Shown here: piece by piece, positions 1 to 36,366 of the stretch
How the letters are laid out: every line of letters begins with the position of its first letter
Position numbering within the stretch: the stretch's first letter is position 1
Assembly (NCBI GenBank): GCA_026770705.1
Contig: JANJGN010000041.1
Location: forward strand, 6,510,001-6,574,000
Direction: 5' to 3'
From: Isurus oxyrinchus
Lineage: Eukaryota
Length of the DNA stretch: 64,000 nt
The notes under the pieces: model-generated
What the model saw: only the letters and a program-made list of their open reading frames with translations
The model's database searches: none
What the model was told of the DNA's origin: nothing
Program-made: the position numbers and the translations under genes

Positions 1-32
1 AGGACCAGCGGTTATAAGACAGGGAGGGAGGA

Positions 33-158
33 TATCAGAATCTGAGAACAGTACATTGGAATGTTCCAACAGTGGATCAGATTCTGAGAACAATGGATTG
101 GAATGTTACAACAATGGATCAGAATCTGAGGACAATAGATCAGAATGTTACAACAATC
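33..158 (+). repeat. Three 42-bp coding tandem units (MDQNLRTIDWNVTT type)
   Basis: Units resemble atggatcagaatctgagaacaatagattggaatgttacaaca, the same unit as at 2024-2314. Confidence 0.9.
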
Positions 159-1060
159 AATAGGAGTTTATTGGGGGCGGTTTATGAATTTATTACATTT
201 TATGATTGGATGTCAGTGGAAAGCTGGATATTTCGGGGCTCCGTGTGAATCAGGCTGATTACGATCCCGATCTCGCTATTATTTGCATCCCTGGAAAGTC
301 TCACTCTATATGGCTATTAATTCTATAAGCGATGCTGAACCGAATTATTTCTTCTTCATCAAAATTACAATTGTTTTGGGGATTGAAAATTTTTTATGCC
401 AGTTAAACAATCCAGGTAGCTTGGATTATCATTAACATCCGAGTTCAGCAATTTCAGTAACATATTTAGTGCCATTTATTCTCTACTGTCTTCCACCATA
501 TCAGTGAAATCACAGTCTATTATTGGCATTTACAATTGTCTCAATACGGCCATGAATGCAGCAACAGATTGGAAGATTTCAGCGCCTTTTGGCAAACGGA
601 TACTTGTTATTTACAAGCATTCTGATTGTTTATTGGGAATGGTTTCATTTCCTGTGGGCCAGGCGTCTGTGTCTTAACCATGCCGTCTTGCTTTATGCAG
701 CCACTGGCCGTTGTATCTGGTTCAGTGACATTCAAAATGGATCGATTTGTGGCCATGTATTTCCAGAAACTGAAAAGTAAATATTGCACCGTGAAAATGG
801 CTCTGAGAAGAATGACTGCTGTGCCTTTTCAAGAATATTTTCTGATATTTCATATTACCAGATTCATCACTTGGAATGCAAGTAAGGTCAATCTCAGGCT
901 GGATTGCATGAGGAAAAATAATCTGGAACATTTTCTGGTTTGAAAATGAAAAACAAAATCGACAGTGCTGCTCATTGAGCCTTCTGACAAAATATAGCCA
1001 ATCGTGGATGAACATGGAAATATTGAAGAGAAAAGACCACAAGGGAATGAGTCGCCTAAA
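33..1060 (+). pseudogene. GPR139-like GPCR pseudogene 1 (exon 1 ~33-293, exon 2 ~505-1060), heavily decayed
   Basis: Exon 1 reads YQNLRTVHWNVPT-VDQILRTMDWNVTT-MDQNLRTIDQNVTT...WMSVESWIFR, then a frameshift, then YDPDLAIICIP-G. The donor is mutated (GA at 294-295). Acceptor AG is at 503-504. Exon 2 fragments: NHAVLLYAAT (TM3) and MDRFVAMYFQKLKSKYCTVKMA. The 3' end is approximate. Confidence 0.8.
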
Positions 1061-2023
1061 TATATGCTAATTCAAAGTCTTAAGGTTGAGGATGGCTGGA
1101 ACAGAGAAGATATAAAGCAAACGACATAGCACTGTCTTTCAGTGTGATCCCTGAAGCAGTACATGGCTTCAAACGTTCTTTTTTAAGTTCTAAGATAAAT
1201 GTCTGGGGAAAGGAGCATATTTTAGCGTGTAGCATCTCTGTTTATAAACTGTAGCATTCAGGCAATTGTGCTTGAGTTGCTGAACCATCTGTTATTGTTT
1301 CCCAACAAAAACGATAATTGGCACTTGGTCATTCTTAGTCCGTATAGTTAACGAAAAACATACTTTCATCATCAACTCTACCAGGTACTTCATTAACTTA
1401 TGGCAATCGAGTTTGTCAGAGGCATTTGCTTTCATTAATGTGTCTCCTCTGGCTTCTACTTAGAAACCCATGTTTTCTAATCAACAAACTTATTTTGCCC
1501 CAGATTATTGAGTCTCTCTCATAACAATACGTTTCACTAACAGCTCTTTGATTCCTTGGCAGATACAACTTTATCCATCTGCCCTACGATAAACAGGGAG
1601 CAATATTGACAACAGTTTGGAAATAGTCCGATATGCAAGGAGCATTGAAGGATAGTGGTTAGTGTGTCCAGGATTTCCGCCATTCCTTCCCTCGTAAAAC
1701 CTCAGACATCCACATAAAAGCTGTAAAAAAGCTGCTTCATTAGGGTAAAATAGAAAGGGGTTAAGTTAATATTTCATATTATGGCATAATGATAACAGTC
1801 TCCATAGACCACAATTGTGCCAATAGAGCTAACACCTCTTCAATTAAAATGCTAATTCTTCCAATAAGCCATCTCATCTTAAAACATGGATAATCAGTGT
1901 GGCACTGTCAGGGGGCAGCAGCTCCAATGCGAAGGAGTGTTTATTTTAAAAACTGAGGACAATACATTGGGCCATTATAATGATCTGTCCGAACCAAGAG
2001 CCGCAGCTTGGAAACTTTCCACA

Positions 2024-2314
2024 ATGGATCAGGATCTGAGAACAATAGATTGGAATGTAACAACAATGGATCAGAATATGAGAACAATAGTTCAGAATGT
2101 AACAACAATGGATCAGAAACTGAGAACAATAGATTGGAATATTACAAAAATTGTGCAGAATCTGACAACAAAACTTTGGGATATTTCAAAAATGGATCAG
2201 AATCTTGGAACAATACTTTGGAATTTTACAACAATGGATCAGTATCTGAAAACAGTAGGTTGGAAAGTTTGAACAATGGATCTGGACCTGAGAACAGTCG
2301 ACTGGCATCATACA
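2024..2314 (+). repeat. Coding tandem array, about 7 x 42 bp (two 21-bp halves per unit), N-terminal ectodomain of pseudogene 2
   Basis: Units start at 2024, 2066, 2108, 2150, 2192, 2234 and 2276. Degenerate units lie upstream near 1940 and 1982. Confidence 0.95.
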
Positions 2315-2639
2315 AGAGGCAGGAGGTTACCCTGGTAAGTTCATTATATGTTGACGATTTATTGTGGAACCGCATTCAAATATGGGGTCCCAATGCTCCT
2401 TCAGGTTATTCAATGTTCTTGCTATCCAATGCTCGCTTTTGTTGGTGTGCATCGTAAGTCTTCCTCTCTCCAGTTTTTAAGTATGTAAAGAATGTTCAAT
2501 TCTAATGCTGTGCTTGAAATTCACATTCGTATCTTCAGTTCAGTTGATATCGCTGGATGTCTCTCTATCTAGCTGTTATATCTGGAAGGCACATTTCACT
2601 GATTAGCTGCACTATGTTCTTATTTTTCAGTTGAGCCTT

Positions 2640-3200
2640 GTATGGATCGAAGCCAGTGTCACCTGACTGCATCCGAAAATGTGTCCTCAGTCCACACATC
2701 CTGCACCAGCCACAGACCCCACCCCCTCCTCATATCGCGACACAGCCCAATGCCTTAAGTTCATTAAGAACGTTTGCTGATGGCCTGAGCTCAGTTCATA
2801 CCCAATACAAAACTTTCCGAAAGACTTTCCAAGACCACCGTCCTAATAACACATATCTCCAATCATACGTCGACCCATCTGCTGCATAAATACACAATCA
2901 GGGCATTTGTTTTCAAGTTGAGACCCATCTACTCATCTAATACCATGGCATCCGAGCCACAATCGCCTTCTGCAACGCACCACCCACCAGCTGCACTCTC
3001 TCCACCGCCCCACAACACCACCTTGCTCAAAATTCACCTCTTGGTTGCAAACCTTGATAAAACTAAACAGATACCAGGTTCTGCTGCCTGTAACCTGAGT
3101 GGAATCAAATTCCACTTAAAGACCGTTCTTGCGCTCAGAGAGTTACATGGGCTGACAGGCCGAAAGAGAATATTTTCATTCTTATATTGCTGCCCCTCAC
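2640..3200 (+). mobile_element. Old L2-like LINE remnant in the intron of pseudogene 2
   Basis: Decayed match to the L2 ORF2 C-terminal QNSAAR...ITPVL..LHWLP motif. A homologous copy lies at 6860-7400. Confidence 0.5.
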
Positions 3201-3739
3201 CACTTTAGAGAGTTTTTCGCCATCGAATGTTTAACAAATGCATGTTTGAAATGCAATATCAGAACAGGCAGCAACGCATTAGTGGCCAATGTTTATCAAA
3301 TGAGACGTCTGCTCCTTCTGCCAATCAGGTTATATCAGAGCCACCTGTTTACCACCCATTCAGCAAACGGAAAAAGAACTGCATCTTTCATCAATTTCCC
3401 CAAACTAGTCAAAATGTTGAACACCTTAATGTTAGTTTCTCAGCACACAATTCTGACAATGGTACAGAGTGATCAGTAGGTACATGCCTGTGAATCCGTG
3501 AAGTTGGGAGGATGGCTTGAGACAGTGGTCATTAATCTTCCCGCATCCTGGACATTTTGAGGAGACACATAGTGTAAGAAAGGAAGATAGAGATGTTAAA
3601 CCTCCATAAAACGCAATTTCATCCTCAGCTGGAGCATTTTGCGGAGCTCTGGAAATCACATATTAACCAGAATTTTAAGGCACCAAAGATGTTACTGAAA
3701 AGTTAGATTACAATTTTAACTAAGATCATTAATCCAAGT

Positions 3740-4160
3740 TGTGTAGATGATTTGCAAAAGTTGTGGCTGTTCTCCTAGGAAAACACAAGGTTGAGGGGCA
3801 GCATGAAGAAATATTTAAAATTATAAACGGTGTGGAAAAAGTACGCATGTAGAAACACTTTCATTGTTGGAAAAATCGAGAATCAGAGGGCACGGATATC
3901 AGGTAATTGGGAAAAAAATTCGATGACCCCTGGAGGAAAACATTTATTACAAAACTTAATGTGGAATATGGTGGTTGAGAGTATGGTGGAGCCAGGCCCA
4001 ACCGAAGACAATGGGCATTGGTTTAGTACCTGAAAAGGAGATAAGTGTAGAAGAAGGGGGAGATGGCTGTGGAAGTGACGCCAGCGAATTGCTCCATCAG
4101 TGGACCACCATGCATAAGATGTGCTGAATATCTTCCCTCCATGCTGCACACATTCTGTGA
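3740..4160 (+). mobile_element. CR1 LINE 3' fragment
   Basis: Decayed LFSLEKRRLRGD...FKII-type C-terminus followed by 3' UTR-like sequence. Confidence 0.6.
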
Positions 4161-6597
4161 TTGCACTCTTCATGATAATAAATAAGGTCCTCCAATCTAT
4201 CCATGTCATTGTAAGCACTCACCTGCGGTGCCATTCTTGCCTGTTTCCTCTCTACCCTTTAGACATTATTCACATTATTTGTAACGTGAGCTGCACATTA
4301 TTCAGCACAATGCAATATGTTTAGAACCTTTACCCAATCTAATGTTTTCAACAGTTGTAGAGTAGCTTCCTGAGGTTTGCATCCATTCATCAAGCTGAAG
4401 GTCTTTGCTGCTTTATTAACTACTTTTCTTAACTTCTCCTGACGTGTTCAAATATTGGGAACAGTCACCCAGTGTCGCTGTGCTCCTGCACCTCCAATAA
4501 AATTGCGCTCTACGTTATAAGTATTGTACTTAGAAAAATTAATCTATCCAGACATACAACATTTCAAACATCCACCATTTGTTATTTCAGATAAAATCAA
4601 TTTAATATACTTACGGTGACAGTGGCACAATCAGAAATGACAATAAGTTATCAACTAAACATTTCTGCTAACCTAATGTATTATTTTCCTGTTTATTTCC
4701 ATTGCTCGCAGTTATATCGCTGACAATTCTGATCATTTCCCGGGCAAAGTGTAGTCTGTCCAAATGTGTAACTTACTGCCTGTTGGCTATGGCATCGGCG
4801 GATTTAGTGGTGATTATATTCGACATGGTATCGAGGCATATTCCAATTGTTCATCCGGAGCAGTTTCGTTTCCTGTGGTTCCTACGTATCTGTAATATCC
4901 ATGCTGTGCTGCTTTATGCAGACACTGATTGCTCAGTCTGGTTCACCGTCACTTTCACTTTCGACCGATTTGTAGCCATATCTTGCCGAATTCTGAAATG
5001 TAGATATTGTACCGAAAAGACAGCAGCTGTGGTTCTTGGAACAGTGACTGTGCTGAGCTTTTTAAATAACCTTTTCTGGTATTTCATGTTCACAGGACAG
5101 TATCAATAGAGGATCCTGCCCTGGGTTTGTTCTGTAATGCTACATGTTTACTACTCTAAGGTTTGGGTAACAATCGAGTTTGTCCATTACATTCTTACTG
5201 CCTGTTTCCCATTTGTCCTGATTCTGCTGCTTAATGTTTTCACGGTCAGACAAATTTTAGTGAGCAGCAGATCCCGCAGGAGACTCTGTGCTCAGAGCAG
5301 TGGAGAGGGGCTCAGAGATCCGGAGGTGGAGAGTCGAAGGAAATCCATGATTCTACTGTTTACTATCTCGCAAATTTCCTGCTGTTGTGGGCAACGATTA
5401 TGGTATATTCTGTATGGATCTGCATGCAAAGTTTGGGTTCTGAATCCATGTTACTGCATCTTTATGTTCAGGAACTGAGCTTCATGATGCAGCTCCTGAG
5501 CTGCTCCACAAATTCTTGTATTTATGCCCTGACCTTAACAAAATTCAGGGAGCAATTTAAGTATTTACTGCAATGTCCCTTTGCACCAATCGTGGAATCC
5601 ATTCAAAAAAGAGAGAAGAAATGATTCAGGGAAGGTCCAGCCATTTTCTCATTTAATTCACATTCCCAGTGGGTGGGGGTACTGTGCCGTTCGACAGAGT
5701 GACTGGAGGAGTTGGATAGCAACTGGAGGAGTTGGATAGATGTGAAACATCTGGTCCGCAGAGTTCCCAGGGAGCAGGTGGGTGGTGGGGGAGGGGTGGG
5801 GGGGATGTGGTGGGGTGTATTGGTGCTGTTTCCCTTGATGAGGGCATTATTGGAGTTGCGGCACCTGTGACTGCACAATGACTAGGGGGTGAGATCTGTT
5901 CCCCATGACCACTGCATAATATCGCAAGTTGGCCAGTGTCGGCAAAATGGAGAGGGGTGGGACTGTTCTTCATAATGACTTCATGATACAAAGCACAGGA
6001 ACTGTGGCGGCATCATAAGAAGCGCCTGCTTGCATTGTTGACAGCTTAATTTGAAGGATGGTTCCTCTGGCACAGCGGATATCGGGGCAGGACCAATCAC
6101 ATGATGACGTCATAACAAAGTTTGGATGGCCCTGGGATTGTTCAATGAACGGGGGAGTGATCTTGGCCCATTGATGACGGCACAATGGAAAGGGCCTTGT
6201 CCTGCTTCATTTGTCGGACACAATGACCAGGTTTAGAGCGAAGGACCCCGCCAGTTCCGCCCATTACGCTCACCCATTGACACAGGGAAAAAGTGTGAGA
6301 GTGCAAAGGTTCAACGCCATGTCCCTCCACATGCACTCTCCTGAACATCAAAGGGAACAGCAACAATATGAAAAAATCTAGCTTTTCAACTTCGTGCGAA
6401 ACATTTCTCCTGCACCGCCTTTAATTTTACCATTTAGTACTTGAATAATCCTGAGGACAATCAATAAATAGTAACATGATTAAAGCAAATCTAAATGTTC
6501 GCCAGTAAAAGCACAACAATGTCTCTGAAACCCCTCCGTCATTTACACCGACAAACACTAACCAACATCAGACGGTTGCAAGTTATAAACCACATTC

Positions 6598-6673
6598 GAA
6601 CATCGAGTTAGAAGAATGCCTCAGATTATTCAATACTTTTACTATCCCATCTTCGCAATTGTTGGTGTACCTT
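6598..6673 (+). pseudogene. Orphan exon 1 of a GPR139-like gene
   Basis: Reads EHRVRRMPQIIQYFYYPIFAIVGVP-T|GTATGC. The following sequence is homologous to the intron after 2454. In-frame stops lie upstream and no same-strand exon 2 was found. Confidence 0.8.
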
Positions 6674-8011
6674 GTATGCCTCTCAAATTATTAATTACAG
6701 AAATAATGCTCAATTGCAATGTTGTTTTTCAATTTCACTTACGTACCTTTATTTCATTTGGTATTGCTTGAATGCCTCTGTGTCCAGCTATTCGATCTGG
6801 AAGCCACATTTCACTGAACAGCTGATCCCTTTACTTATTATACAGATGAACCTCGTGAGGATTGAAGCCAGTGTCTTCAGTCTGCATCATAAAGTCTGTC
6901 CTCCATCCACACACAGTCCATAATGACACACCCCACACCATCGCTACCCTGCGACCCCATCCATTGTCTCAGGTTCATCCCGAGAGTTTGCTGATTGACC
7001 TGAGCTGGGTCCCACCCCAGATGCCCCCTTTCCGAAACCCTGCCAATTATCACCGCTTTGATATTACCTATCTCCGAAGGTGCCTCGTTTCAGCAGCTAC
7101 ATAAACCCACAATCTGGCCATGTGTTCAATTTTAGACCTATCTAAATGCAGACCCAACTACTCATCTGTAGAAATCTCATCCCAGCCGGACTCTGCTCCG
7201 CGCACCTGCCCCCCTTGTTCATGCTCCAGCTCCTAGTTATACACTTTAATAAATTTCATCAGGTACAACATCCCGCTGCCTGTAACGGACTTGAAACCAA
7301 ATCCCACTTAGCCATCGTCCCTGTGCTCAGTAGTTGACAAGGGCTGGCAGCACGAAAGTGAAAATTTTCATTATTCCATTGGTGGCACGAACTGATCTCT
7401 CACTTCAAGTGTGTCCAATTATCCTTCTCCTTCCCTATATTTATGCGATCGATTTCTCCCCTTCTGATTTTATTGAATTCCATTGTTAAACTGCTTTTCT
7501 TTGCCTCTGTATCTCTCCCTCGATTCACTGTTGCCAATCCAGGGAAACCTGTTTTCAAAGAATAAAAGTGCAAACCAGCTTTCTGATACTGGAAACAGTT
7601 TCACATTGCCGGCTCTATCATAGATCTTCAGGATTTGAAATCTCTCCTTGACCTTTACTGCTCGAAAGAGAACAAAACCCTGGTTTTCCACAACCCTCCA
7701 ATCTCTGGTAGCCTTACGGAAAATCAGCTCTAACTTTTTACCAAGTCTTTGCCAAAGTGTGGCTCTCGGAATTAGACCCCATACTCCATACTCAACCGCG
7801 TTGTTGCTGGCCCTCTTGAAGTTCCACATCTAATCCACTTGGTAGCCATGGTGCTTCCAGATCATAATGGTTCTCTGAAAGAGGCTGAGGATGCTCAGTC
7901 TATGTCAGTCAGAGTCTAATTATTAACCTCTATCACTGAGCATGCTGTGGATAGTGGTTGGGCAGATTATGAGGAGTGTGTGTGTTCTGTTTATGATTCA
8001 TTCGGTTCAGC

Positions 8012-8797
8012 TCAGCATTCAATCAGTTTTACAATCGTAGGAAAAGAGTATTTCATCAAAGCCTTCAGCTGCTCTCTGAAATTAATCTAGGTCACTTCAT
8101 ACAAACCAGTGTTTGGGCAGCAGCTCAGTAACAGCAGCATGAAGCATATTTCTCGAATATAAAGAGGGGATTGTAGCCTAACACTCCCATTCCCCACCAT
8201 ATACAAAACTCTGTTAATTCAGCCCATAAAAGGATGCAATTTCCTTAGATAACCAACAGTAAAATTATGGACTTCTTTCAACTCTCCAGCTCTGGGTCTC
8301 TAGCACTCTTAACTGCCGTGAGCCCCGAGTCTCCTGCGGGCTCCGCTCACCATGAAAAGAGACCTGACCGATAAAGTTTTGAGCACTAGAATAAGGCAAA
8401 ATGTGACACCCGGCGTAACAATGTAATGAAGAAACTCGATTGCTGCCCAAGCCCATGAATTCTGAGCATCCAATGTCACAACACAAGATCGGGGGTAATT
8501 GAATGGCCAATACGGAGCCATATACTTAAAATGCCAGAAAAGGTTCCTCAAACAGCTCAACAAAATGTCCTTTCCCAAAACCTCAGATGCACGTTTTCTC
8601 GGTGCAGCATTTTGTTCTCAACTTACTGTCTCAAATAGCCACAAATCCACCGAATGTAATAGTGACAGTGAACCAGACAGAACAATTTGTGACTGTATAA
8701 AGCAGAACAGCATAGTTATAACTCACGGGAATAAAAAACAGGAACATAAGTTCGATTTTATAATGAATGGAAGATGCCTCTGTATAAGGTCGATGCG
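8012..8797 (-). pseudogene. GPR139-like pseudogene 3, 5'-truncated exon 2
   Basis: Fragments with frameshifts and stops: IDLIQRHLP, LLYTVTNCSVWFTVT, KCCTEK, LSCLRNLFWHF, WAAIEFLHYIVTPGVTFCLIL, LLLSCCPNTGLY, FREQLKALMKY. Confidence 0.88.
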
Positions 8798-11350: not shown

Positions 11351-12699
11351 CTATTCTGGAAATCATCACTTCCTATTTAACCTGATATCACTGATTCACC
11401 ACAGCGAATCATTCATTAACATCGCTCACCAAGGGATTTGTCAGAAATCCTCAGCTGCAGAATTATCTACATTTCAACTGTGAAATAAACTCACCTGGCC
11501 CATACTCTCCAACTACTGGGAGAAACCAGGCACACAAAACCTTCAGCATGGAGCGGGGAACAGGAGTGAGAGGACAAGCGACAAACAATTGAAGTAAGCC
11601 ATGAGAGATTGAAACAAGAGTGAGAGTGAAGAGATGTGACTGGAAAATGGTGGAAGAGAGAAAAAGGGCTGGATTAGGGTAATTTTACAAAATACCCTCA
11701 ATTACAAAATTCCAATGTGCTGATTCACTGCGTCCAACTCTCTTTATTTACTGCATCCCACTCCCCACACTGACTACGTCCAACACCCCTCAGTCATTAC
11801 CTCCTGCTCTCGTCACTCACTGCGCCCCACTCCCCTCAGTCACTGCATCCCACTCCCTAAAGTCACTGCATCCCACTCCTCTTAGTCCGTGTCCCACTCG
11901 CCTCAGCAAATACACACTTCGCCCTCAGTCAACACATCCAAATATCACCACTGAATAAATCCCACTCCCTCGGTGAATAAATCCCACTGCCCCCGCTGAC
12001 TACATGTCACTCCCCTTAGTCACAGCATCCCACTCCCCTCAGTCAGCACACCCCACAATCTTCAGTTTCAGTTCGCAGTGATCACATTGTGTGAAGATTT
12101 TCTGTAGAATATCCTCTCCAAACTGATACCTAATATTTCACATCCTTTTGGGCTGGAGGTTCAGGAAAATGACTTTTCGAGTCTAGTGTTCCTGAGATTC
12201 CAGAGTTAGTGTTATCCCTGGATCTGAAATGAAGATAGGAGACATGGGAGATTGCAAAGCGCATATCAGCTCAACAGATCATGCAACTAGTATTAAAGTT
12301 GAGAAAATGTTTGAATTCTTAATTATAGAATTTGGAGCATATCAATGTTATGGTTGTCAGCCAATACGCATTGCACCCCAGTAACTAACTCCCAGTCCCC
12401 TGAGTCACTACGCGTCACTGACCTCACTCACCAAATCACACTACCTCCACTCATTTTAGCCTTATCTCCTCATTCGCTCTATCCCACCATCCTCAGTAAG
12501 GAGAAACCTCTCCCCTCAGTCACTAAATCTTACACCCATCACTGACTGATTCCCATTCCCCTCGCTGATTGCTTTCCGTTCCCATCACTCACTCCATCTC
12601 ACTTCCGTCATTCATTGCATCCCACGCCCTCAGTAAATCCATCCCACAGCCCTCAATCAGTGCATCCCAACCCCGGAATCAGTACATCAGACTCCCTTC

Positions 12700-15460
12700 C
12701 ATCTCTGCCTCTCACTCCTCTCCTTCACTATATAACTAATCCTGTTAGTCACTGCATGCAACTCCGCTAATTACTACATATCACTCCAGTCAATATATCT
12801 CATTACATTAAGCAACTACATCACACTACCCTCAGTCACTACATCTGACTCCCTTTAATTACTAAATACTATTCCCCTCAGTCACCACAGTCCACTCTGC
12901 AAAGATATTACACCCCACTCTATCAGTCAACGAAATCCATTTTAATGGAATATTACATATTATTTTCCTCTGGAAATCTTTCACTTCCCGTTTGTAAGAA
13001 ATTGAATAATGTAATTGTTGAGAACAAGTCCTGCATTGACACTTGCACATTCTGGCCCCATTAATCGCCCTCATATATATATTTATTTTTTATCTCAAAG
13101 GGGACCTGTGAGTGAGCTTATTCTGGGAACAAAGAGTCCACTTAGAAACATATGTGATATGAACAACAAATTAAGTGAAGGACCTATTTTGAAACAACCC
13201 ACTGTGCAGATACCTGAGCTTGAAGACTTGGCTAATACAGAAGGAGAAATATCAACGGCTTCTGTCATCGATTGTTCCCTTGGTTCTGGAATTCGGAAGG
13301 TCCCTGCATGTGGTATAAAGTAGGAGGGAGATGAGGGAGGGAGGAGTGGGGGAAAAGGAAATTTCACCTGTTTGACATGAAGCTTCAGTAAACGTCACAA
13401 ATGTTAGCAAATATATATAGTTTAAATAGGTTACATTGGTGCTTGTAGGTTTCAGGAGTGAGTGTTCGCTTTAAAGTTTATGTTTGATTAGTATTTCTGT
13501 ACTTGTGTGATAAGAAAGGTAAAACTGAATTTTTGTTTCAGTTTGAAAAGAAACTTGCATTTCTAATGAGCGTTTAGAACTTGTTCATTAACCAACACAA
13601 GTGTAGAATGAAATAATGCTGTCGACTAGCAAAAGGGGTCCAGGCAGGCACGTATCTCCCACAGACACACACGGAGGAAGAGAGACAGCAGCTGATGTGG
13701 GAAGCTGTTGGAGCTCAGTAGCGTTCAAGGATGTTGACAGATGAAGCCACTGAAAAGAGGCAGATAGCTAGTCCGAAGCTAAAATTCGTTGAAAATATCT
13801 GCCAGACAAATTGGAGCGAAGGCATCAGATAACCAATCCCAAACTGAAGAAATTAGCACAAAATCTCTGGGTGTAGAACAGGACAAAGTCTCACACAGGA
13901 CATGTTAATTAAGGTAAGGGTGAGGGGAAGAGAGCAATGCAGCATGCTTCAGATTTAAAGAGTCAAAAGCTGCATAAAGCACATTTAAAGAGAGCACAGA
14001 TTACAAGAAGTGAGAATGTGAAATAAAGGTAGGGCAAATCCAAGTTAGGATTCCACTGCTGAGTCGGTACTTCCCACTCAGTCAGTTGCTACCTCTCTCT
14101 CCCCTCCGTCACTGCATCCCACTACTTTCCTTCACTACACAACTAATCATCTCAGTCACTGCATCCCACTCCGCTAAGTCACTATATCTCACTTCACTAC
14201 GTCAATGCATCTCACTCGAATAAGTCATGACATGACACTGTGCTCCGTCACTACAGCTCACTCCCTTAATCACTAAATTCTACTCCCCTCAGTCACCACA
14301 CTCCACTCTGCACAGATATTACACACCACTCCCTCAGTTGTCGCAGTCTAGTTTTATGATATATTACATGTTGTTTTCCTCTTGAAATATTTCTCTTGTC
14401 GTCTGTAAGAGATTGAATAGTGCATTTGATTGAGAACGATCCTGCATTCACACTTGCACTTTCTGGCCCCATGAATCGCCCTGATATTTGTGTTTCTTTT
14501 TCCCATGGTGTCCTGTGAGTGAGCTCATTTCGGAAGCAGATTGTCCACAAGGAACAATTCTAACGGGAAGAACAAATTAAGTGAGGAATCCACTTTGAAA
14601 CAAACCCATTGTGCAGATACCTGATCTAGAAGATTTTTCTGTTACTTACGGAGAATTATCAACAGATTCTCCAGTGGATTACTCCCTTGGTTCTGGAGTT
14701 GGGATGGTCCCAGGATCTGGTATAAAGGAGGAGGGAGATCAGGGACGGAGAAGGATGTGAACAAGGAAATTTCACCTGTTTGACATGAAGCTTCAGAAAA
14801 CGTCATACATGTTAGGAAATATATTACAGTTTAAGCAGGTTGCATTAGTATTTGTAGGTATTCGGAGTGAGTGTACGCTTTAAAGTTTGTCTGATTTGTA
14901 TTTCTGTACTTGTGTGATAAGAAATGTCAAAATGAATGTTGGCTTCAGTTTAAACAGTTCTTTGCATTTGTAGTGAGAGTTCACAACATTTTTCGTTAAG
15001 CAAACACAAGTGGAGAAAAGATTGTGTTGTTTCCTAGCAATAGGGGTCCAGGCAATCTTGTGTCTCCCATAGACACACACGGAGAAAGAAATACAGCATC
15101 TTGTGTGGGAAGCTGATGGAGGCCAGCTCGCTTTCAAGAATGTTGCCAAAAGAGGTCACTGAAAACGGGCAGAAAGCAAGTCCCAAGCTAAAATTGGTTG
15201 AAAGTAGCTGTGAGAGAGAATGGAGCAAAGGCAACAGATAACCAGTCCCAAACTGAAGAAAATAAAACAAAATTTACTGGTGTAGAACAGGTTAAAGTCT
15301 CAAGCAGGTCAATATAATTAAGTTACGATTGAGGACAAGAGAGAAAAGCAACATGCTTCAGATTTAAAGAGTCAAAAGCTACATAAAGCACATTTAAAGA
15401 GAGAGCAGATTGCAAGAGGGATGAATGTGAAATAAAGGTGGGGAAAATAAAAGTTAGGAA
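12700..15460. repeat. Tandem duplication of a ~1.4-kb unit (minisatellite + exon + unique tail), with a partial third copy at ~16015-16320
   Basis: Colinear matches at an offset of ~1407 bp, e.g. aggaaatttcacctgtttgacatgaagcttcag near 13357 and 14764. Confidence 0.9.
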
Positions 15461-16804
15461 CGGCCCCTCAGACGCTACATCCCTGTTACTCTGTCACTAC
15501 ATCCCATACACCTCAGTCATTGCATCCAAATCCACTCACTCACCACATCGCACTCCCTTCACACAATGCATCCCAATCCACTCACACACTACATCCCACA
15601 CGAACTCAATGACAAAATCCCTATCCACTCAGTCACAACATCCCAAACACTTCAGACAAAACCTCCCACTCACCTCAGTCACAATACTCACTCCCCTCAC
15701 TCAGTACTCCCTTCTCGCATCAGTCACTAAATCCCTTTCCCCTCACTGACTCCATCGCCTTCCGATTAGACACTATATCACATTCCCAAGTCACTTGATC
15801 CCATTCCACTCACTCAGCATATCGCACTCCACCCCATTACTGCATACCAACTCCCACAGTACATCGATTCCATCCCTCAATCATTATGTCCCACTCTCCT
15901 CAGTAACTACATCCTACTCCACTCAGTCACTGCATACCAATCCTTTCAGTCAGTGGACTAACATGTGTTCAGTCAATTCATCTCGCTCCATTCAGTCACC
16001 TAATCCAATTGCACTCAGTCACCACACCACACTCTGCTCAGAGGATGCGCCCCGCTCCCAGGCTAAAATTGGCTCAAGTGGCCGCTACAGTGACGGGTGG
16101 AAAGGGAACAGATAAATAAAGCTAAAGTGCACACCACAACATCCAGGACAATGGAACAGAATAAATTCCCATGAAGACCTTCTGGGCGAAGGAAGGGCAG
16201 GAAACTGGAATGGATTATGTTAATGAAGATAAGGGTGAGGGGCAGAGCGATTGTCTCCAAGCTTCATAATTAAAGGGACAAGAGCTGCAGAAATCAGATT
16301 TAAAGCCAGAAGTGCTTACATGGGCGATAATGACTGAAAACATGGCTGAAGGTCTGTAACTCTTTGCTAGGACCTCTGAAGTTACTGTACTGTCATAGCT
16401 GATTCGGTGAGAGAGAGCATATCGTAGGCAACTTGGATTCATGTGGCGGCTCTGTGAAGAAGAACATCAGGAAGAGATTTTGAAACCCACAGCTGAAGCA
16501 ACGTGAAAGGCGCCTGAGAGTAAGCGCCCATTTGGGAGACGATTCCAAGGTGAGGACTTGGAGAGTGGAGAATGGAATTCCTCATGTGAAAGACACAGTG
16601 TGGTTAGCCGAGTAGGCCCCGATGTGACAGGTGTCTTGAAGGAGTTGATGAGAAATCTATAGCATCTGGTTGAGGTGGCAACTGTCACTTGATGCCAAAG
16701 TGTGGCTTACATGATCACAGGGTGTCATAATTTTGCATGAAATGTAAACGTACTGTGAAAATTCGCGTATAGGATAGCTTTGAACCTTGTGTTATCCTTT
16801 CAAA

Positions 16805-16814
16805 TCTATATATG

Positions 16815-16846
<32 letters not shown>
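16805..16846. repeat. (TA)n microsatellite
   Basis: Directly visible. Confidence 0.95.
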
Positions 16847-17699
16847 AGAAACATATTATTCTGTCGCTAAAAAATCATCAGTTCACTCCTGTGACTCTAC
16901 TCAAAATCACGCAGCCTACATTCCTTGCATCCCACACTGTCAGTATGATATAGGGACTAAGTCATTGTGCAGTCACAATGAATGAAGGATCAGCTTATAA
17001 AGAACGCCACAGAGAAGATACCTGAGGCTGGTGACACTGGTGAGATAGAGGATAGTCTCCCAATGGATTCTCTGGTAGATTCTTCCTCAGGTTCCTTAGT
17101 TGTCAATGTCCCTGGATATGGAATAAAGGGTGAGAGGAAAGGGGCAATATGGGGATCTCATTGAACAACTCAACCTTATTCGGCAGAAGTGTCCAGAGAA
17201 TGTCACACAGCAGTGTTTATAATACATGTTTCTACCTGAGTAATCTTCTGCCTGTGAACACAGACTGTGAACTAAGTAGAGGCTATAACTTCAATCAACA
17301 CATTCCACTTCCCAAAATGACTCATTGTGAAACTTCAAAAACTCAACATCCTACTCCCTTCAATACTGCAATCCTCTCCCCTCAGTTACTGCACCCCAAC
17401 CCCCTCAGTCACTGCATCCCACTCCTCTCAGTCACTGCATCCTTCTCCCTTTAGTTACTTCATCCTACTCCCCTCAATCACATACTCCCACTCCCTTGAG
17501 CAGCCATATCCCACTCCAACCAGTCACTACATCCCACTCCATTCGGTTACAACATCCCACTCCTCTCAATCACTGCATCCCACTCGCCTTAGTCACTTCA
17601 ACCCACTATCCTCAGTTACGACATCCAACACTCCTCAATCACTGTATCGCACTCCCCTCAGTAACTGCATACATGTTACTACAGTGTTACAACATTTTA

Positions 17700-26869: not shown

Positions 26870-29800
26870 TCATTTGCCTGATTTTACGCACAGTTTCACA
26901 AGATACTGCATTCCGCTCTGCAGCTCCCCCCTAAACTTAGCCTGTGTCAGAACATAGATGAATGTATTTGTGCAGCAACTGAGGACCCCAAGCATAGATC
27001 CAACTGACTCTAGCTCATGTGGGACAGATTTTGATATGGTTGTTACACGCAGAGAGATACAATATATAACCGAAGTTGTCCAGAGAAGTATAAAGCTGCT
27101 GGTTATACTGAAGAGTAAAATAATGGACTTTCTTCGGCTTTCTATTTCAGAGTCCTTGTGATGCTCTCCATTGCTGCAACCACGGAGACCCCTGCGAACT
27201 TTACTGGCAAAAAAAACACATCTTCCCGTCAAAACATTTAGCAACAAAATTAGAATAAAGGGAACACATGGGGTCAAGATAATGGTAAACAGGTCAAATG
27301 CAGCCCATTCAGCAGAAAGGAAAAATGTCTGTTTTGGGACACAACCATGATTTACATTGTCTATTATATACGCAGGTTCATGCGCAAAGTACCAGGGAAT
27401 GTTTATCAAACAACTCAAAACACTCACCACTGAAATGACAGCTACTGCGGTAATCTCCGTGCAATATTTTTTTCGAAGTTTCTTACAACATATGACCACA
27501 AAACGATCGAAGGTGAACAACACTGTTAACCAGACAGAGGCGGATGTGACGACATAAGTGAATGTCACAGTTAGTTGGCACACTGTGCTCATGGTCAAGA
27601 ATGAAGCAGGGAAATAATTATTCAGCATATTGTTAAAAATGACTTCAGCACAAACAACCAGGAGATCCGCCATGGCCATGGCGATCATATAGAGGGTAAT
27701 ACATTTTGAGAGGCCACACTTTCCTCGGAAAAGAATCACAATAGCAGCAACATTAACTGTAAGAGAGGGATAGAGAGAGCAAGTGGTAGAAGGCACAAAT
27801 GAACATGATTAATTTTCTTCCTGTTGCAGCAAAGGTTCATCCATTTGACCCAAATATGCACAGTCTGCATTCCGAGGTGAGCAGGTTCTAAATGTAAACT
27901 GGAACTACTGAAATTGGAACCATCAGTTGATAATTCGCTTTTTGGAAGCAACAGCTTCAACTTAGACTGGACAATTATTGTTCAATAACGATTGATAATG
28001 CTGAGGGCGAATGTGTCCTGGACAATTTGAAAGCACACAAACGTCTGGGCATGGTGAATATTAAAAGGTAAATGAGAGGTGAAAAGTATCAATTCATGTG
28101 TGTTTGTGCAATGTGAAGTTGGAAATGAATGCAGAAAAAAATATCTGGGCCAATTCGAGACCTACTCTGGAAGAGGTAGTGGTGCAATGTGTGCTGGGTC
28201 ATCTCCAGATGTGATAAGTACTGGGAAGGATCACTGTGCTACAGGACTTACAGCTTGAAGGTAAACTATTGCCCAGGGGCACCAACTTACTCTGAACGCT
28301 TCTGGGGGTAAAGATGGGATGGTAAATACACAGGAACAGAAAATGGTCACTGAGCTATTTGAAAGACCAGAATCAATCAGGCCGAATGCCAGTTTACACC
28401 GGAGTTATCACAGTGGCAGTACAATGACAATCAGTACAAGGTAAAAATCTTATGCAGGTCCCCAGGGAGAAGTTTTATTTGGGGATGAGAGCTAATCAGT
28501 CATGTGTTTTAAGTCAGCCTGAGTAATGTGAGATTGTTATGCTGGCTGAGCGTTGTGCAGGATTATTTCAACTGAATGCATCGCTAAAACATTGCAGAAA
28601 GACGGAAGCAACATTGCTCTGCAGAATGGGTGCACTTGGTGCTGATCAAACGGCCAGTTAATGGCTGACTCGGACCAGTGACACGGCTGTCAGTTTGAAT
28701 GGGCAATATTTATTCGCCATAGGGGCACATTTCTTTCAAAACATAGTCAATGAGCAATTTGATGATGTGATTCTTTTGAGGTCATAACTAGCGTTTTGCT
28801 TCCGAGTGACAGGACAGAGTTCCCATTAATTAATGAGCTTCAAAACAATCACTTTGTTGCCTAAAGGGCAGAATGGTGTCGCTTGCATCTTAAGTACAGC
28901 ATCCGTGCAAAGTGAATTGAAATGTGAAGCTGACAATTAACTTTTGCATGGCACCAATTGCAGAAGAGCGCAGTAAAAATTCACCATAATGGGCACATCA
29001 ATTTGAGTCTATAGACTAATATTTGTTCAGAAAAGTCAAATTACGAATTGTCGATTACCTGAATAAAGACCTAGCACCTAACACACCCATGTTTAAATTA
29101 TTATCCTCTACTGCTTATTTCATTTCATATTGGCCAGCCTCATACAACCCAGGAACCTTAGCTTTTTTTGTTAAAAAGCATATTTCTTTTTTTCAAAATG
29201 CAGGAACACCTTTAGAGAATTAGCGAAGTTATTCAATGTTGCCTTATTTTACAAAGATTAACCTCAGATATTTATACTGATTACTGAAGGAATTATATGA
29301 TCTATATAAATCAAGCTAAATTTGTGTGAGCCTCAGATATTCACGGTTGCATTATGATTTCTGTTGTTTACTTAGTAAATGTCCATTTTAATTTTGTAGA
29401 ATATATTTTCTAAGTGAATCTCAGTGAAATAATTTGTAGCTGCCAGATATGTAATAATTTGACGCGCACGTTTATTAGATTAGTTTCGGCATTTCAAAGC
29501 AAGTTAAATATCTACAGACTGAATTATTATCGAAAGTACGCAATCGGCTCGCTACTGATATTTTGTTTGCCGTTCTGGTGGTGATGCTATCGGACAGGAT
29601 GTCTTGGCTCTGCAAAGGAGCAGAATAGCTTTCCAACTGAAATCTGCAGTCAGATTGGGGAGGCACAGATTAGTAAATGGATAGTGAACATTCTCACAAT
29701 AATGGGATGAGTGGATAGAAAGTTATTTCAAGTACGAACTGGTTTCATGCCTGTGCAACATGATGCAGACTGAACGTAGATTTTCCGCAAACTTGAACTC

Positions 29801-32800
29801 AGGGAAACAATAATGCATTGAACGTCTATAAACGGGGTGGTGAAGTAACAATTTGGATCATATTATTTCAGTAAGTTGTTGGTTAATGATTCAGATGAAC
29901 TTTGAATGAAGTAAGGCGAATTAGTCGGATAAAGCTTTTTATATTTTTGAATCAGATTCCAAGTTGGCAAGCTTTGAGCATACAAACGAAAAATGAAGAA
30001 AATCTATTCGTGTTACATACACAGTCCAGTTGGCAGCCTCCGATTCACAATTCCCTAACTGGAATGCAAGCATCAAACATTGATTGACTTAATGGAGCTG
30101 TCAAAGATAATCACAAACAGCCTTGAAAACGCCAGGCAATGGATAAAAATTAAAGTTTGAACTTCTCTTGACCATGTAGGATGCAGTGGTAAAGTTGGAA
30201 AGATTAGAATTCAAAGCTTTTTTGACACAATTGCAGCTTAAAATAAATGTCGAAAATGAAAATTGACCTTCATTTACCCGATACCTATTATTATTTGAGC
30301 AAACCTAATACTTATGTTCCTTCAATGACATGCATTTAAAATGAGAGACATAATTTTCCGTGCACTATTATGAATTATACAAAGACTGTAGATAAATTAT
30401 CAGCACTTGAAACAGTACTGATGACCACTGTAAATAAGGAAACAGCTTTAAAAATATAGTAATTTAAATGATTATATAATGAATCAGCCAATGCTTGAAC
30501 AAAATAATTATCAATACTATTATCCAATAAATTATCAGTATATTTCCAGAAATTGTCTCGGAGAGTAAACGTTGAAATGCCAGAGGAATGAACTACCAAT
30601 TATCTACCTAATTAAATAGTGACATATCCAAACCATTATCCACTATTTCGCTAGCAAATTAAGTATACAGGCAACAAATATATTATCAACATTATTCACT
30701 GCTAACTAAACTAAAGAAATGAACATTTATATATGCTACAGAATTACCCTTTGCTCTCTGCAACTGCAAGCTGCTTCTGGCCTGTTATTAATTGCTGTTT
30801 GGGAAGAGTAACATGGAGCAGGTTTGGCTTATGTGCCTATTGGTGTCCTTTCTGCAACCACCCGAGTCTGAAGAACTGCAGAGCGAAGGAGGTTCCTCCA
30901 GCGTCCCAAATCCATATCACTTTAACAGCAATGTTATATTCGCAATGTATGTACACAATAACAATTTTCTATGCCATATTTTGCATGCAAAACAGATCCT
31001 TAATGGGTAATTCATTTGTGAATGTTGTTGCGAACGCACAACCGAGTGTGATCCACTGGGTTGTGATTGTAGTTATGACCCATTGCTGCAGGCTCCATAG
31101 CAGCAGTTACACAGGAGAAGTGACACAAATCCTCCGGTGCAGGTACAAAACGCTAATCGTGATTTAAAATCATAAAGAAACATTACAATAAGTGGAGAGC
31201 GGCTTGGATTTTACGTTTTTCGGCAGCGTGAGATTAGTGAAATGCAAAACCAACCCTTTTCCTACTCACCCGCTCTTAGACCACTTCCCGCTCCACAATT
31301 CGTTAAATTCCTACGGCGAGCACGCATTGAGTGATGCAAAATGGGGTCCGCATCCAATCGGCAGTGAAAGCCTGAACATTGTTATTCAGAGTGTAATGCG
31401 GTGAACAGAAAGTTGGTATGGCTGCAAGCTCAAGTCCACCTGCTCTTAGAAACTGTTTTTCCAAAAATGTTTTTCGTTGAAAGCTCAAGCAAGAAACAAA
31501 AAAAGTGATATGTTAACCTGAAGGCGCTACCACCTTCCCTAGCAGAATCTGTTGCTACATTTAATCATGGTCCCGGAGGCAGAACATCTCTTCCGCACGA
31601 TTCTCGCCTGGTGGTAGCTGTCCAGGATCATTCCCTCTCCTCTGTGCCACCACAAGTGCAAATCTCGAATCAAGAAAACGTACAATTGAGTCGTTCACAA
31701 ACTCAATAAGTTGCTAATTAGTAACTTGTAAAAGGAGGGCCCGCCCGTTCTCCAACTGCAACTGGGAGATTCATGTACCTGACGGCATGAGACCCGATTC
31801 ACGTCATTGATCTTCGTGCAGATTCGGCATTTCTGTGGGAGGTGGGGGGTGGGGAATCGGCCTTCTGAGAGATGAGTGAAGGGTGGGGGGGGGGGGGGGG
31901 GGGGCGGCGGTGGGGGGGAACGTGATTTGCAGACAAATTTCCAGCCAATCATTTTGGTAAAATTTTTAGCTACTCAGAATTGAATTCAAAATGTACGTTT
32001 TCAGTTAGGGGCCAGTGTTCTCCGAAATGATTTACATTTAAACATGCATTTTGGATTTAATCTTTGTTGAGTTGGAAAAAAAACAGCCAGGGCCGTCACT
32101 TCAATGCAAAAAGGCCATCAATATTCATAGATTCGTCATTGTGCAGCATTTTCATTTTTTTGGATATTTTGACAAGATTAGCACCTTCACTAATTCTTCT
32201 TGAAAGTAAGGGTTTTCTGGTGCTGCTGTCCATGTGAATGGGGTGCAGAGAGAATGCTGCGAGCAATGGATTTCCAGGTTGTCGATCCAGTGACAGTCAT
32301 GGAACGGTGATCGAAATCCAAGTCATTTTGGTATGTGATTTGGAAAGGGTTTTGTAATTAAGAGTGTTCCCATGCCTCGTCTGCTCTTGTCCTTCCTGGC
32401 TCCCGAGGTTAAGTTCAGAAACGACGGAACATTGCAGGCATCTGGCATATGTCCACAGCAGCAACGATCATACCTAACAACTCGGATTAACTTGGTGAAA
32501 TGCACGACAGGGCTACTTGAAAGCAAAACAGCATGAGAGAGACAGGGCTCATTCATCCCCCTTTCGAATTTCGATAGCTGAGCTCTGAATTCCTGTCACA
32601 TTGCCTTGAATGTTGCTGAAATATTCTGCAACTCACTGCAGAATTGCTCCCACCAATATCCCCATTGGCAATGATTGTGGAGCGCAGCACACCTTTGCAT
32701 ATACATGGCTGAAGAATTTGCAGCCATATTCACCCTGAAGTGACGGGTGGATGAACCATCCCGGCCTGCTCCTACGGATGACAAGTATCACAGATGCCAG

Positions 32801-35800
32801 ACTTCATACAATGTGATTCTCGGCACTCGAAGTTAAGGACTGACTAAAGGAACTGGATGATGCAGATAATATGCGTCCTTTTAGATAGTGTCAGTATTAC
32901 TGGTATTCAGTGCTCCAAACTAAGCCTTCCTATCCTAGCTGGTATCGTGCTTTTAAAGAGCTGGCATATACACAAAACTGTGAACATTTTCACAGGCACG
33001 CCTATCCACAAAAAATAAGGACAAATCCAAACAATATCATTACAGCCCCACCTGCCAACACATCATCATGATCAACTGAAGAAAAGTATCATGGAAAATT
33101 CTTTTAATCGCCACGTACTCGGCAGTAAACTGCTCACTGATGCTCACTTTTTGCTTTGTGTGAGCTCCAGCTCGCAGTTCGGCCGTGGTCCAAACATGGC
33201 CAAATGTTTTGCACTGATAAGGTGAGGAGAGAGGGGCTGTGTTTTATATCAATACAGCTGTTTTCACACTGTGGTATCAACGAGGGCTATGATAACTGTA
33301 GTCAATAAGAATAGGGAGCACCTTCCCCACTGCTTGAAGTCAAACCAAGCATAAACGATTTATTTTTTTTAATTTATAGCCAGACTTGTGCTGAATAATG
33401 ACAAGTAATATTCGCCCCACAATATTGACAGGTAATGACCACCTGCACCAAATTAATATCCAACATAACACGCTTGAGCTTTAATGACATTACCATCGCT
33501 TAAGCCCACATTTTCAGAATCATTGGACAAGCCATTGACAAGAAACTGTGAGTAGAAGGACAGGTCAAAATCTGAGAATGCTGTGGTGAGCAATGCACCC
33601 ACTGACTCTCCAAAACCTTTCCTCCATCTAAAATGCATAAATCAGGGATGTGATTGGTTCCGCTACACCTGCCTGGATGATTTACGCTCCAATTGAATTC
33701 AAAGGTATTAACTGAATCCAGGACAAAACAGGCTGCTTGATTTGGAATCATTCCATAAATTTAATGATTCATACTGCTTATCCTTATCTGAATAAGTCCT
33801 CTTACTGCGTTTAAAGTTCATATGAATCTGCAGCAAACATCTGATTGAAATTATATTATCCAAAATGGGGAGTATCCACCCAATTTGTCGGTATCACTCA
33901 AATGTATTACTGCTTTCCTAAATATCATTTTGCAAAACTTTCAGTGTGCACCATTTATCATATCCTTGAGTACACGTGGTTCTTAAGTGAAATCTCATGA
34001 TATCACGTATTACATTGGCAAAGAATGTCTCCTCCTGCTGACCACCTCCCGTTTCCCTCAGCGGATGAAACAATGATCATCAATGGCCGACGTTTTGGGG
34101 AGTGAGAAGAAAAAAAAAACGCTTTACATCGGGGACCTCGATGTCTGTGAGCAAGAGAGGATCAGGGGCACCACTAATGACCGAGCTGGCCGACTCATAA
34201 AGATAACTGCTAGACTGGGTCTTTGGCAGGTGGTCAGGGAACAAACCAGTTGCAAAACTCTAAGTGAATTCGCTGAACCAAACTACCCAACACAGGGGCA
34301 TCTGTCCATTGAAGGATTGATAGTATTGACCACCGCACGGTCCTTGTGCAGACGAATTCTGTCTTCAGACTGGTGCTTCCCTCCATTGTATTGTGTGAGA
34401 CAAGCATTGTGCTAAATGGGGTAGATTTCACGTTGATCAAGAACTAAAAATTGCGCATTCACGAGGCACTGTCGACCATTGGAACGAGCTGATTTGTGCA
34501 CAACCATAATTTGTAACCCCAAGTCTAGCGTGTCCCCAAATCTGTAGTTTTCATGTGGTCTGGTATTGGTGATGTTTCTGATGCCAGTTAAGCACTCTAC
34601 CTTGCTCCTTTGGTGTAGATTTCATTACGTTTTGTTGTAGCTCTGCGACAAGGAATGTTCAACAGATCACTTATTGGATTACTGTTAATTAACTGGGATT
34701 GTCCTAATAGAGACATTGACGAGGCTCCCCCTCTGCTTTCTGGAGCATTGGCAAATGAGAAGTGATCTCACGGAAGCAGTCACCCCTCTTATAAGTTTCG
34801 GTGGTGTACATCTTGGATGGATGATTCCACTGGCTGGTGTGTCTAAAACCAGGAAAAGCAACAAGGTCTGCATTTAGAACTGAGATGAGGAAGAATTGCA
34901 TCACTCAAGAAGAGGTAAATGTTCGAAATTATGTACCACAACCTCGGCAGATGGGCAGTCATTGAGTATGTTGAAGCTGCCGATGAACCTAATGTGCAAT
35001 AATAAATGCATCCAAAGATAGGGGATAGTGCATGGAATGTCGTGGAGAAATACTTTCAGTCATGATAGACTTGAATAGTGGAGCACCATCGTGCAGTCAA
35101 ATGGTCAACTTCTACTCGTATTTCCTGTGCTGCTATATCCTTCTATCAGCGCCACCATGTAACATGACAATGTTTGTTTCCCAAAGCCAAAGGCAAGTGC
35201 GACAATGCCTATTATCAATCTATTGCAATTCTCAATTTAGGTTAGTTAGATTTGGAAGCAGGTTTGCAACAGCAAGAAGTAAAGGGCTAGACATTTAAAT
35301 GAGCAGAATAATGAGAACCAGATAACTACTCGGGGAGCATAGGTGTTCCACAATCGGACCATTTATGTCTCAGTTAGCAATCTTTGTGCTAAGATAGATG
35401 TTTCATTACTTACGTCCTGGCGTCAGTACTGGTGAACAAAATTGTCAGCCAATGCGCCATTGCCATAGTGAAGTAGTTCTGCACTATAGGATGCAGTAAC
35501 TTTCAAAACAGATGTCAGTTCGTTCTACAGGGAAAACATCAAAGATTCCTTGTCTCTATTTCAAACATCGACATTGTCGTAGCCCCTTAGGTCCTGACTA
35601 CCATTTAAACTTCTGCTAAATCCCACAAAACGGATCATCTGGTCATTGTCAACTTGCTGCTTGTCGAATCTTCCCGACCGTTTGCATCACTTCAGTGACT
35701 ACACTTCATAAGAATCTATTAAGCTGGTCGATAATTGAGGTTGTAGAAATGCATGTATTTCAATAGACAAGTGACTAAGACATCGGAATATCTTCTGCAC

Positions 35801-36366
35801 ACACAGCAATCTGTTTCAGCCAGACTACGAGATATCCTCTCTGCATACAGATTTGTAAAAATATCGCTATCGTAATAAGTATCTGATCTGACAGGGATCC
35901 CGGTATTGAAGTATTGGAAACTGGACGATAACCATTAGCGACGGCTGCAAGTATTTCAAGCATAATTTTGTAGAATGCGAATTAGCCTCTGCACAGATAT
36001 TCACAGATTGTGTTTTCTCCAAGTTGAAACTCGGTTTGCACCTGATTATGATAATTATTGCAGAGCCTGCACGGTTACATGACATTCCGTAAAGCAACAA
36101 TAAGGTGTCAGCAGTGGAGACCATGGAATGAATGATATAGCAACAGGTAGAAATCTATTAACGTTATGGTTAAACGTACATCCCTTCTATGATGATTTCC
36201 CAAAATTAAAGAAATGATTTCATGTTATCGGAACGGGCGTTTGAGAAGAAGATCAACATCCATTTATATGTGCAATGATTGTATTTAGGCTCTTACCAGG
36301 AACACCAATAGCCGCAAGAATAGGATAGAAAATGGCTTCTATCTGGCGAAGTATCTTTAATCCCAT
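26870..36366 (-). CDS. Apparently intact GPR139/GPR142-like class A GPCR, join(36366..36297, 27756..26870), 318 aa
   Basis: Exon 1 (70 nt) is MGLKILRQIEAIFYPILAAIGVP-G|GTAAG. Acceptor is ctctcttacAG|TT, giving V-N-V-A-A. Exon 2 is open for 887 nt and has MAMADLL, a TM3 Cys, FDRF, an ECL2 Cys, TPCVPF, ESRRKSIILLF and SCCTNTFIY. The exon pairing across the 8.5-kb intron is inferred from phase and homology. A candidate AATAAA lies at 26659-26654. Confidence 0.9.
30748..31152 (-). pseudogene. Decayed B7/PD-L1-like IgV exon inside the GPCR intron
   Basis: Pieces across frames: ITLGCAF, ELPIKDL, KIVIVYIHCEY, SAVLQTRVV and KDTNRHISQTCSM...ARSSLQLQRAK-G|GTAATT (phase-1 donor). Confidence 0.45.
32600..33750 (+). 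mobile_element. LINE family A ORF2 fragments
   Basis: Homologous to the reverse complement of 20390-21850 and to 43000-44290. Confidence 0.65.
34080..34545 (+). mobile_element. LINE family A endonuclease fragment
   Basis: LYIGDLDV...GTTNDRAGR...ARLGLWQVVREQT (APE GDFN region). Confidence 0.75.
34820..35140 (+). mobile_element. CR1 3' fragment
   Basis: tttagaactgagatgaggaagaatt...cactca motif and a CR1-like tail. Confidence 0.65.

Follow-up and report, generated by a model that had tools for sequence, protein, structure and literature searches.

Coding tandem repeats of variable unit number (VNTRs) are known from several membrane receptors, including the 13-residue mucin repeat of GPIb-alpha, the neck repeat of DC-SIGNR, MUC1, and the 16-residue repeat of DRD4. 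The repeats of GPIb-alpha and MUC1 are extracellular and glycosylated, and these four VNTRs are O-glycosylated stalks, a coiled-coil neck or an intracellular loop. N-terminal glycans help class A G-protein-coupled receptors (GPCRs) to arrive at the cell surface, and long N-terminal tails without a signal peptide are translocated poorly. GPR139 and GPR142 are class A orphan receptors that sense aromatic amino acids. According to the sections of PMC7318219 drawn on here, GPR139 is a two-exon gene, its zebrafish ortholog is 70% identical to the human protein, its Trp/Phe pocket is assigned to E108, F109, H187, W241, R244 and N271, and a repeat tail is not reported there.

The window analysed here is a stretch of 64,000 nucleotides from Isurus oxyrinchus (contig JANJGN010000041.1), numbered from its first nucleotide. 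It contains a class A GPCR gene of two exons, the first of which carries a coding minisatellite; the locus has the following features.

about 1950–2023, plus strand: two degenerate units upstream of the main array, with a frameshift between them (self-blastn and translations)
2024–2317, plus strand: coding minisatellite of seven in-register 42-bp units of 14 residues each, read from the ATG at 2024
2270–2272, plus strand: premature in-frame TGA within unit 6
2318–2453, plus strand: remainder of exon 1, with the spacer and the first half of TM1 (YP motif) up to a GT donor, laid out as in relatives
2336–2338, plus strand: premature in-frame TAA in the spacer before TM1
2454–4711, plus strand: phase-1 GT-AG intron inside TM1, placed by homology rather than RNA
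4712–5624, plus strand: exon 2 with the 7tm_1 body, disrupted by a TAG at 5107–5109 and a frameshift near 5370–5390

Tandem Repeats Finder places the 42-bp array at 2021–2296 (6.6 copies, 79% matches, score 307), and in self-blastn positions 1950–2147 align to 2117–2315 at 73.5%. The two 21-bp halves of the unit are identical at 15 of 21 bases, so the 14-residue unit is a dimer of 7-residue halves, as the original prediction had read it. The same prediction counted about seven units at this locus, three in pseudogene 1 and none in the intact gene, and both Tandem Repeats Finder and the unit register agree. The five sequons that it listed are present (NVT, NVT, NIT, NLT and NFT, at residues 11, 25, 39, 46 and 67), but their supposed recurrence every 14 residues or so does not hold: the successive distances are 14, 14, 7 and 21, units 6 and 7 carry no sequon, and unit 4 carries one only in its unusual half. 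Five sequons exceed the expectation for shuffled sequence (mean 1.26; five are reached in 0.19% of 20,000 shuffles of the same 98 residues). The proposed 4-3 heptad spacing of hydrophobic residues can likewise be seen, but this reading omits the well-kept W10. In-frame ATG codons open units 1, 2, 3, 5, 6 and 7 in an ACAATGG-like context (A at -3, G at +4). A chance origin of the repeat was ruled out, as was a bacterial or viral one. Upstream of the array, positions 1902–1925 of the plus strand are similar to an upstream stretch of the Heptranchias and Stegostoma models, which would make the segment a 5' UTR or promoter element conserved within the clade. Array-upstream sequence is common to several species and is usually out of frame.

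The locus at 2024–5624 is a pseudogene, a point on which the original prediction was silent. The segment 4714–5106 still matches Pfam 7tm_1 (E = 3.5e-7). Three stop codons (TGA, TAA and TAG) and a frameshift interrupt the gene, so that no open frame joins the array to TM1 at this locus. At 2338 and 5108, related contigs from three public DNA runs mostly have different nucleotides, and the stops are therefore not shared by the whole family. Compared with the unit consensus, the two arrays of the window together have 49 non-synonymous and 7 synonymous differences (pN/pS 1.7); protein-level constraint leaves no trace in them, a pattern that fits decay. Both arrays stand on broken genes, and the window taken alone would overturn the in-frame reading.

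At least five copies or remnants of this GPCR family lie in the window. Those that bear on the comparison of unit numbers are as follows.

30–860, plus strand: pseudogene 1, of the same clade, with three units (30–155), a decayed spacer and TM1, and an exon 2 remnant at about 619–856
36297–36366, minus strand: exon 1 of the intact paralog, with a 12-residue N-terminus that has neither repeat nor sequon; putatively paired with the exon 2 given next
26870–27756, minus strand: exon 2 of the intact paralog, an open 7tm_1 frame (Pfam 7tm_1, E = 4.3e-19)

The array of pseudogene 1 is placed at 34–157 by Tandem Repeats Finder (3.0 copies, 86%). The paralog at 26870–36366 is the sole intact gene of the window, and its exon 1 matches at 79% a protein of the basking shark that starts in the same way. 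An orphan segment (6588–7384, plus strand; 67% to 2368–3192) that corresponds to the 3' portion of exon 1 and the start of the intron has no array, and further decayed exon-2 remnants of the family are found at 8027–8753 and 41399–41981, both on the minus strand. Elsewhere, positions 11725–17670 hold dispersed 23-bp minisatellite arrays and a 1.4-kb tandem duplication (12692–15599, 78%), and positions 62140–63990 hold a degenerate microsatellite tract of 4-bp period that includes five runs of N and in which long ORFs are artefacts.

The introns and flanks of the 5.7-kb cassette (positions 1–5700) are also matched by many contigs, 80–95% alike, from three DNA runs; the gene therefore spreads as a whole multi-kilobase cassette. 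Read depth on the repeat is several-fold higher than on exon 2 in two runs; summed depth does not equal copy number, and contigs of multi-copy loci cannot be assigned to alleles. In run X21, which is only guessed to be RNA, three contigs of low depth cover the repeat and several cover exon 2. Because these two parts have the greatest depth in the DNA runs as well, the X21 coverage was not used as evidence of expression. Some public contigs have 41-bp, frame-breaking periods at high depth.

Relatives with the array were gathered by repeat-seeded searches (8 and 50 proteins), cluster look-ups and, for distant ones, a profile search. Among the 73 repeat-clade proteins assigned to species (nine further fragments were excluded from the count), 64 gene predictions carry the array in frame upstream of TM1 and match the exon-2 profile end to end, that is, over a complete 7TM; this fraction, like the sequon and conservation figures below, is biased upward because the searches were seeded with the repeat, and a database entry presupposes an open frame. 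The intact models come from Heptranchias perlo (32), Heterodontus francisci (26), Pristiophorus japonicus (4) and Stegostoma tigrinum (2), and several of them have extra N-terminal sequence that is probably mis-modelled. The other nine proteins are truncated or chimeric models, including two from Scyliorhinus canicula and one from Hypanus sabinus. In these predictions the repeat is thus not confined to pseudogenes or 5' UTRs and is in frame with TM1, and the sequon-bearing N-terminal extension of variable unit number that had been proposed from the window is a variable-number in-frame coding VNTR among these predicted intact paralogs.

The intact models have one (10 models), two (21), three (23), four (7), five (2) or eight units (1); the unit pattern counts one too many in a few of them, and the range is about 1–8, mostly 2–3. 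Unit number changes between near-identical paralogs: P0007 and P0019, with cores 99.6% identical, have two and four units, and P0022 and P0332, with cores 98.9% identical, have eight and three. All 140 unit-to-unit spacings are in frame (7, 13, 14 or 21 residues), as gene models must be. A catshark model (P0236) has a homogenised 13-residue unit, one codon shorter, in which frame and sequon are kept. At the C-terminus of the same model a second 39-bp array is read in a different frame, so a neighbouring copy also has the shortened unit. The longest arrays are those of P0001 (10 units), P0236 (8) and the window (7), all on broken or truncated models, and of the intact P0022 (8). That long arrays are mostly on broken models hints at an upper limit to array length, in a sample that is small and biased. 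The drift of a minisatellite fits the copy-number data as well as the functional 'length-tunable' ectodomain of the original prediction.

The sequon is confined to the W-half of the unit (present in 153 of 216 W-halves and in 5 of 199 Q-halves), which sets its density at one site per 14 residues. Each of the 64 intact models has at least one sequon in the N-tail, on the luminal side, and no significant difference in sequon retention was found between single-unit (11/12 units) and multi-unit models (99/127 units; p = 0.46). Between species, in 33 proteins whose spacer is of the standard form, identity is 44–66% in the TM1-proximal unit, 22–45% in the 23 residues next to it in the same exon and 62–71% in the 7TM core; the unit thus exceeds the same-exon spacer in conservation 1.3 to 2.8 times. 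The mean frequency of the top residue in 35 aligned members is 0.82 in the unit, 0.56 in the spacer, 0.69 in ECL1, 0.60 in ECL2 and 0.61 in the outer TM6-ECL3 region, and on the intracellular side it is 0.97 in ICL1, 0.95 in TM3 and 0.93 in TM7. The unit is extracellular yet conserved in the manner of the 7TM core and better kept than the remaining, variable face, so the repeat behaves as a constant part and not as a diversifying recognition surface. W10, which formed part of the search anchor, is retained in 93% of 212 half-units; D9, W10 and N11 are kept at about 90% against 58% for I8, with D and W inside the anchor and N outside it. Some clade members have no array or sequon (P0086, P0108, P0195 and the ray proteins P0229 and P0312, the latter two with a degenerate sequon-free unit), so the glycan is not required throughout the clade.

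An AlphaFold2 model built with 117 sequences has a mean pLDDT of 79.5 and a confident 7TM with helices at about 90; its array is at 42–62, and six of the eight units each contain a single short beta strand. A shallower model is poor throughout (mean pLDDT 43.6, array 26–31). Neither model has a helix along the array, and the helical ectodomain suggested earlier found no further backing than sub-threshold Pfam matches. These are to DUF1664, FlaC, DUF7491 and V-SNARE for a 10-unit array and number nine for the window array, all below the curated cut-offs; being coiled-coil-like, they reflect the 7-residue period and are the sole support for a helix. The strands are not evidence of a fold either, since AlphaFold2 builds unrealistic beta-solenoids for perfect repeats, according to the part of PMC11795689 used here. 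Complex prediction with two copies of the 8-unit tail scored 0.01 and is uninformative either way. An adhesion-GPCR-like stalk was ruled out: nothing lies distal to the array, which is therefore no stalk carrying a binding domain. The spacer that separates the array from TM1 opens with a degenerate half-unit, and the 117-sequence model gives it a short helix before TM1. It is one of the most variable parts of the protein and could cap the ligand pocket.

With the intact window gene as query, 3095 candidates were retrieved, of which 2101 clusters reach E <= 1e-20; among the best 120 of the 2101, 119 are named sharks or rays, and the matches listed include at least 13 named species. A loose unit pattern gave false matches outside the clade and a strict one was used instead, with which the repeat is found in 0 of the best 120 of the 2101 relatives. 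In 72 of these 120, 12–14 sequon-free residues precede the TM1 YYP motif, and the tail is thus as unusual for a short-N-terminus receptor as had been supposed. FastTree analysis of 254 exon-2 cores places the repeat-bearing proteins in one clade of 73 tips (support 1.0, stem 0.41), which includes the window pseudogene; seven tips have no recognisable array: in some the first exon is mis-modelled, and in two the N-terminus is short. Like the rest of the family, relatives from coelacanth, salamander and teleosts (about 25–34% identity) have short, sequon-free N-termini, and the tail is therefore derived. Proteins P0300, P0297, P0305 and P0329 from coelacanth, salamander and teleosts, named 'probable GPR139' and with short N-termini, may represent GPR139-related lineages apart from true GPR139 and low-copy kin of the shark expansion.

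The receptors have the features of class A: Pfam 7tm_1 is above cut-off in P0022, P0002 and the intact window gene, and there are a DRF motif and the confident 7TM model. The nearest solved structure is human GPR139 (sequence E = 4.4e-15; fold match to 7vug, E = 4.6e-10, 23% identity). The window genes belong to the elasmobranch models named 'probable G-protein coupled receptor 139', with spacer and array confined to one clade. As in GPR139, the window gene has two exons (GT-AG intron by homology). In an alignment whose pocket numbering offset was set by hand, F109, H187 and W241 correspond to Y, H and W in the shark profile, whereas E108, R244 and N271 correspond to L, L and F. GPR139 orthology was ruled out by the 23–25% identity in fold alignments and the only partly matching pocket; judged from sequence, the automatic NCBI name is a label of resemblance, not of orthology. 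Unlike GPR139 and GPR142, the shark genes form multi-copy clusters with many pseudogenes. Clusters, many pseudogenes and a short N-terminus are shared with the OR, TAAR, T2R and nematode Srw receptors, as are a variable extracellular and a conserved intracellular face, and Srw matches occur in relatives. Pfam gave no OR, TAAR or V1R family match above cut-off in the window genes and relatives. ESM Atlas searches with the full protein returned only GPR139-like, FMRFamide-receptor-like and Srw-type clusters, and those with the array alone gave no usable match.

The tail is a dead copy in the window and real in predicted intact paralogs, where its function is putative. We propose, with moderate confidence, that a coding minisatellite provides a glycosylated flexible tail for folding and surface delivery, in which one sequon is enough and copy number drifts by unequal crossover. 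Exon 1 of the shark clade would have gained a spacer of about 35 residues and a 21-bp motif, and doubling of this motif would have produced the 42-bp coding minisatellite. Intact genes would start at the AUG of the first unit, and the resulting tail of about 50–150 residues would enter the ER lumen with no signal peptide and receive one N-glycan per unit at D-W-N-V-T. It would form a constant glycan brush, probably unstructured, and would not be the part that recognises the ligand. From the biology of class A GPCRs, its likeliest role would be to give at least one glycan to an otherwise sequon-free receptor, in support of folding, ER exit and surface stability. Selection would hold the unit sequence and at least one sequon; unequal crossover or slippage would alter copy number, mostly tolerated between 1 and 5 units, and difficult translocation of a long tail could perhaps cap it.

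Several other explanations were weighed against the glycosylated flexible tail. Unit number itself could be functional, if a longer glycan brush screened the pocket from large ligands or set membrane spacing or surface density, with paralogs or alleles tuned accordingly. The spread of about 1–8 units in intact models, its shifts between near-identical paralogs and the conservation of the unit despite its extracellular position are all compatible with such tuning, but an unselected minisatellite also changes fast between near-identical copies, an array without a distal domain is not a stalk, and broken or truncated models account for three of the four longest arrays, in a small and biased sample; we consider this explanation unlikely. 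It is similarly doubtful that sharks and rays possess an undescribed huge GPR139-related repertoire of chemosensory type in which the N-glycan tail of one branch forms a second axis of variation, the pocket loops determining specificity and the unit number determining ligand access or surface density, switched by unequal crossover or by in-frame AUG choice. Alternatively, the array could act as nucleic acid, either through the strong AUG in each unit (alternative starts, rescue after upstream lesions) or through promoter-proximal transcription-factor sites, with the peptide as a by-product and the array partly 5' UTR. Six of the seven window units open with the ATG described above. The motif AACAATRG, which we take to be a SOX-type core, has 14 occurrences in the window against 7.0 expected, and nine of the 14 lie in the two arrays; the D-W codons contain ATTGG, presumably a reversed CCAAT; and the upstream sequence common between species is usually not in frame. 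The motif match is post hoc, however, and amounts to one site per unit and not nine independent ones, a scanning ribosome would take the first strong AUG and the whole array would be translated, and both the 13-residue variant and all of the spacings keep the frame, as models must. A role of this kind has, in our judgement, a small chance of being the right one.

The remaining two explanations appear less probable still. The units could form a folded repeat, either a heptad helix or coiled coil with a core of L5/V12 and I8/M1, or a 14-residue beta-solenoid with I8, W10 and V12 facing inward, possibly for receptor association. The weak sub-cut-off Pfam matches of the 10-unit array and the strands of the 117-sequence model point in this direction; against it are the array pLDDT in both models, far below that of the transmembrane helices, the lack of a long helix, and the solenoid artefact reported for perfect repeats. 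One-unit receptors and the 13-residue unit moreover break the heptad register and leave no solenoid, and stacked glycans would be expected to crowd a helix or solenoid. Finally, the minisatellite could be a neutral passenger that landed in frame and is carried along as the cassette duplicates in genomes that evolve slowly, neither unit nor sequon being under selection. That contigs also cover the introns and flanks of the cassette, that pN/pS of the window units is not below 1 and that the clade has array-less members would all be expected of a passenger. The higher conservation of the unit than of the same-exon spacer between species speaks against it, as does the difference between D9, W10, N11 and I8 under equal homogenisation, with the reservation on the anchor residues D and W; we regard it as quite improbable, to the same degree as the folded repeat.

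We found no paper on the repeat or on a GPR139-like elasmobranch expansion in a search that covered main texts, with most subscription papers and supplements outside it. The main texts of PMC11979771, PMC12294341, PMC10620051, PMC8455134, PMC12208981 and bioRxiv 10.1101/2025.06.08.657570 do not mention the family, which the tandem-cluster tables of the preprint may list. A relative paucity of GPCRs in cartilaginous fishes is stated in the main text of PMC8455134, in contrast with the 2101 clusters retrieved from one window gene, and the host family may matter more than the repeat. Expression in sensory tissue, if it occurs, would make this family relevant to the chemical sensing of sharks, which have so few olfactory receptors. 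Near-identical cores with 0–8 units offer a natural series for the effect of tail length and glycan number on GPCR translocation and surface delivery.

Coding VNTRs in receptors are known; a variable array of N-sequon units as the free N-terminus of a class A GPCR, present in several shark orders, was not found in print and appears to be new. The shark tail has in common with GPIb-alpha, DC-SIGNR, MUC1 and DRD4 the in-frame units of variable number in a membrane receptor. It differs from all four in that its units carry N-sequons and make up the free N-terminus of a class A GPCR, and in that their number varies across many paralogs.
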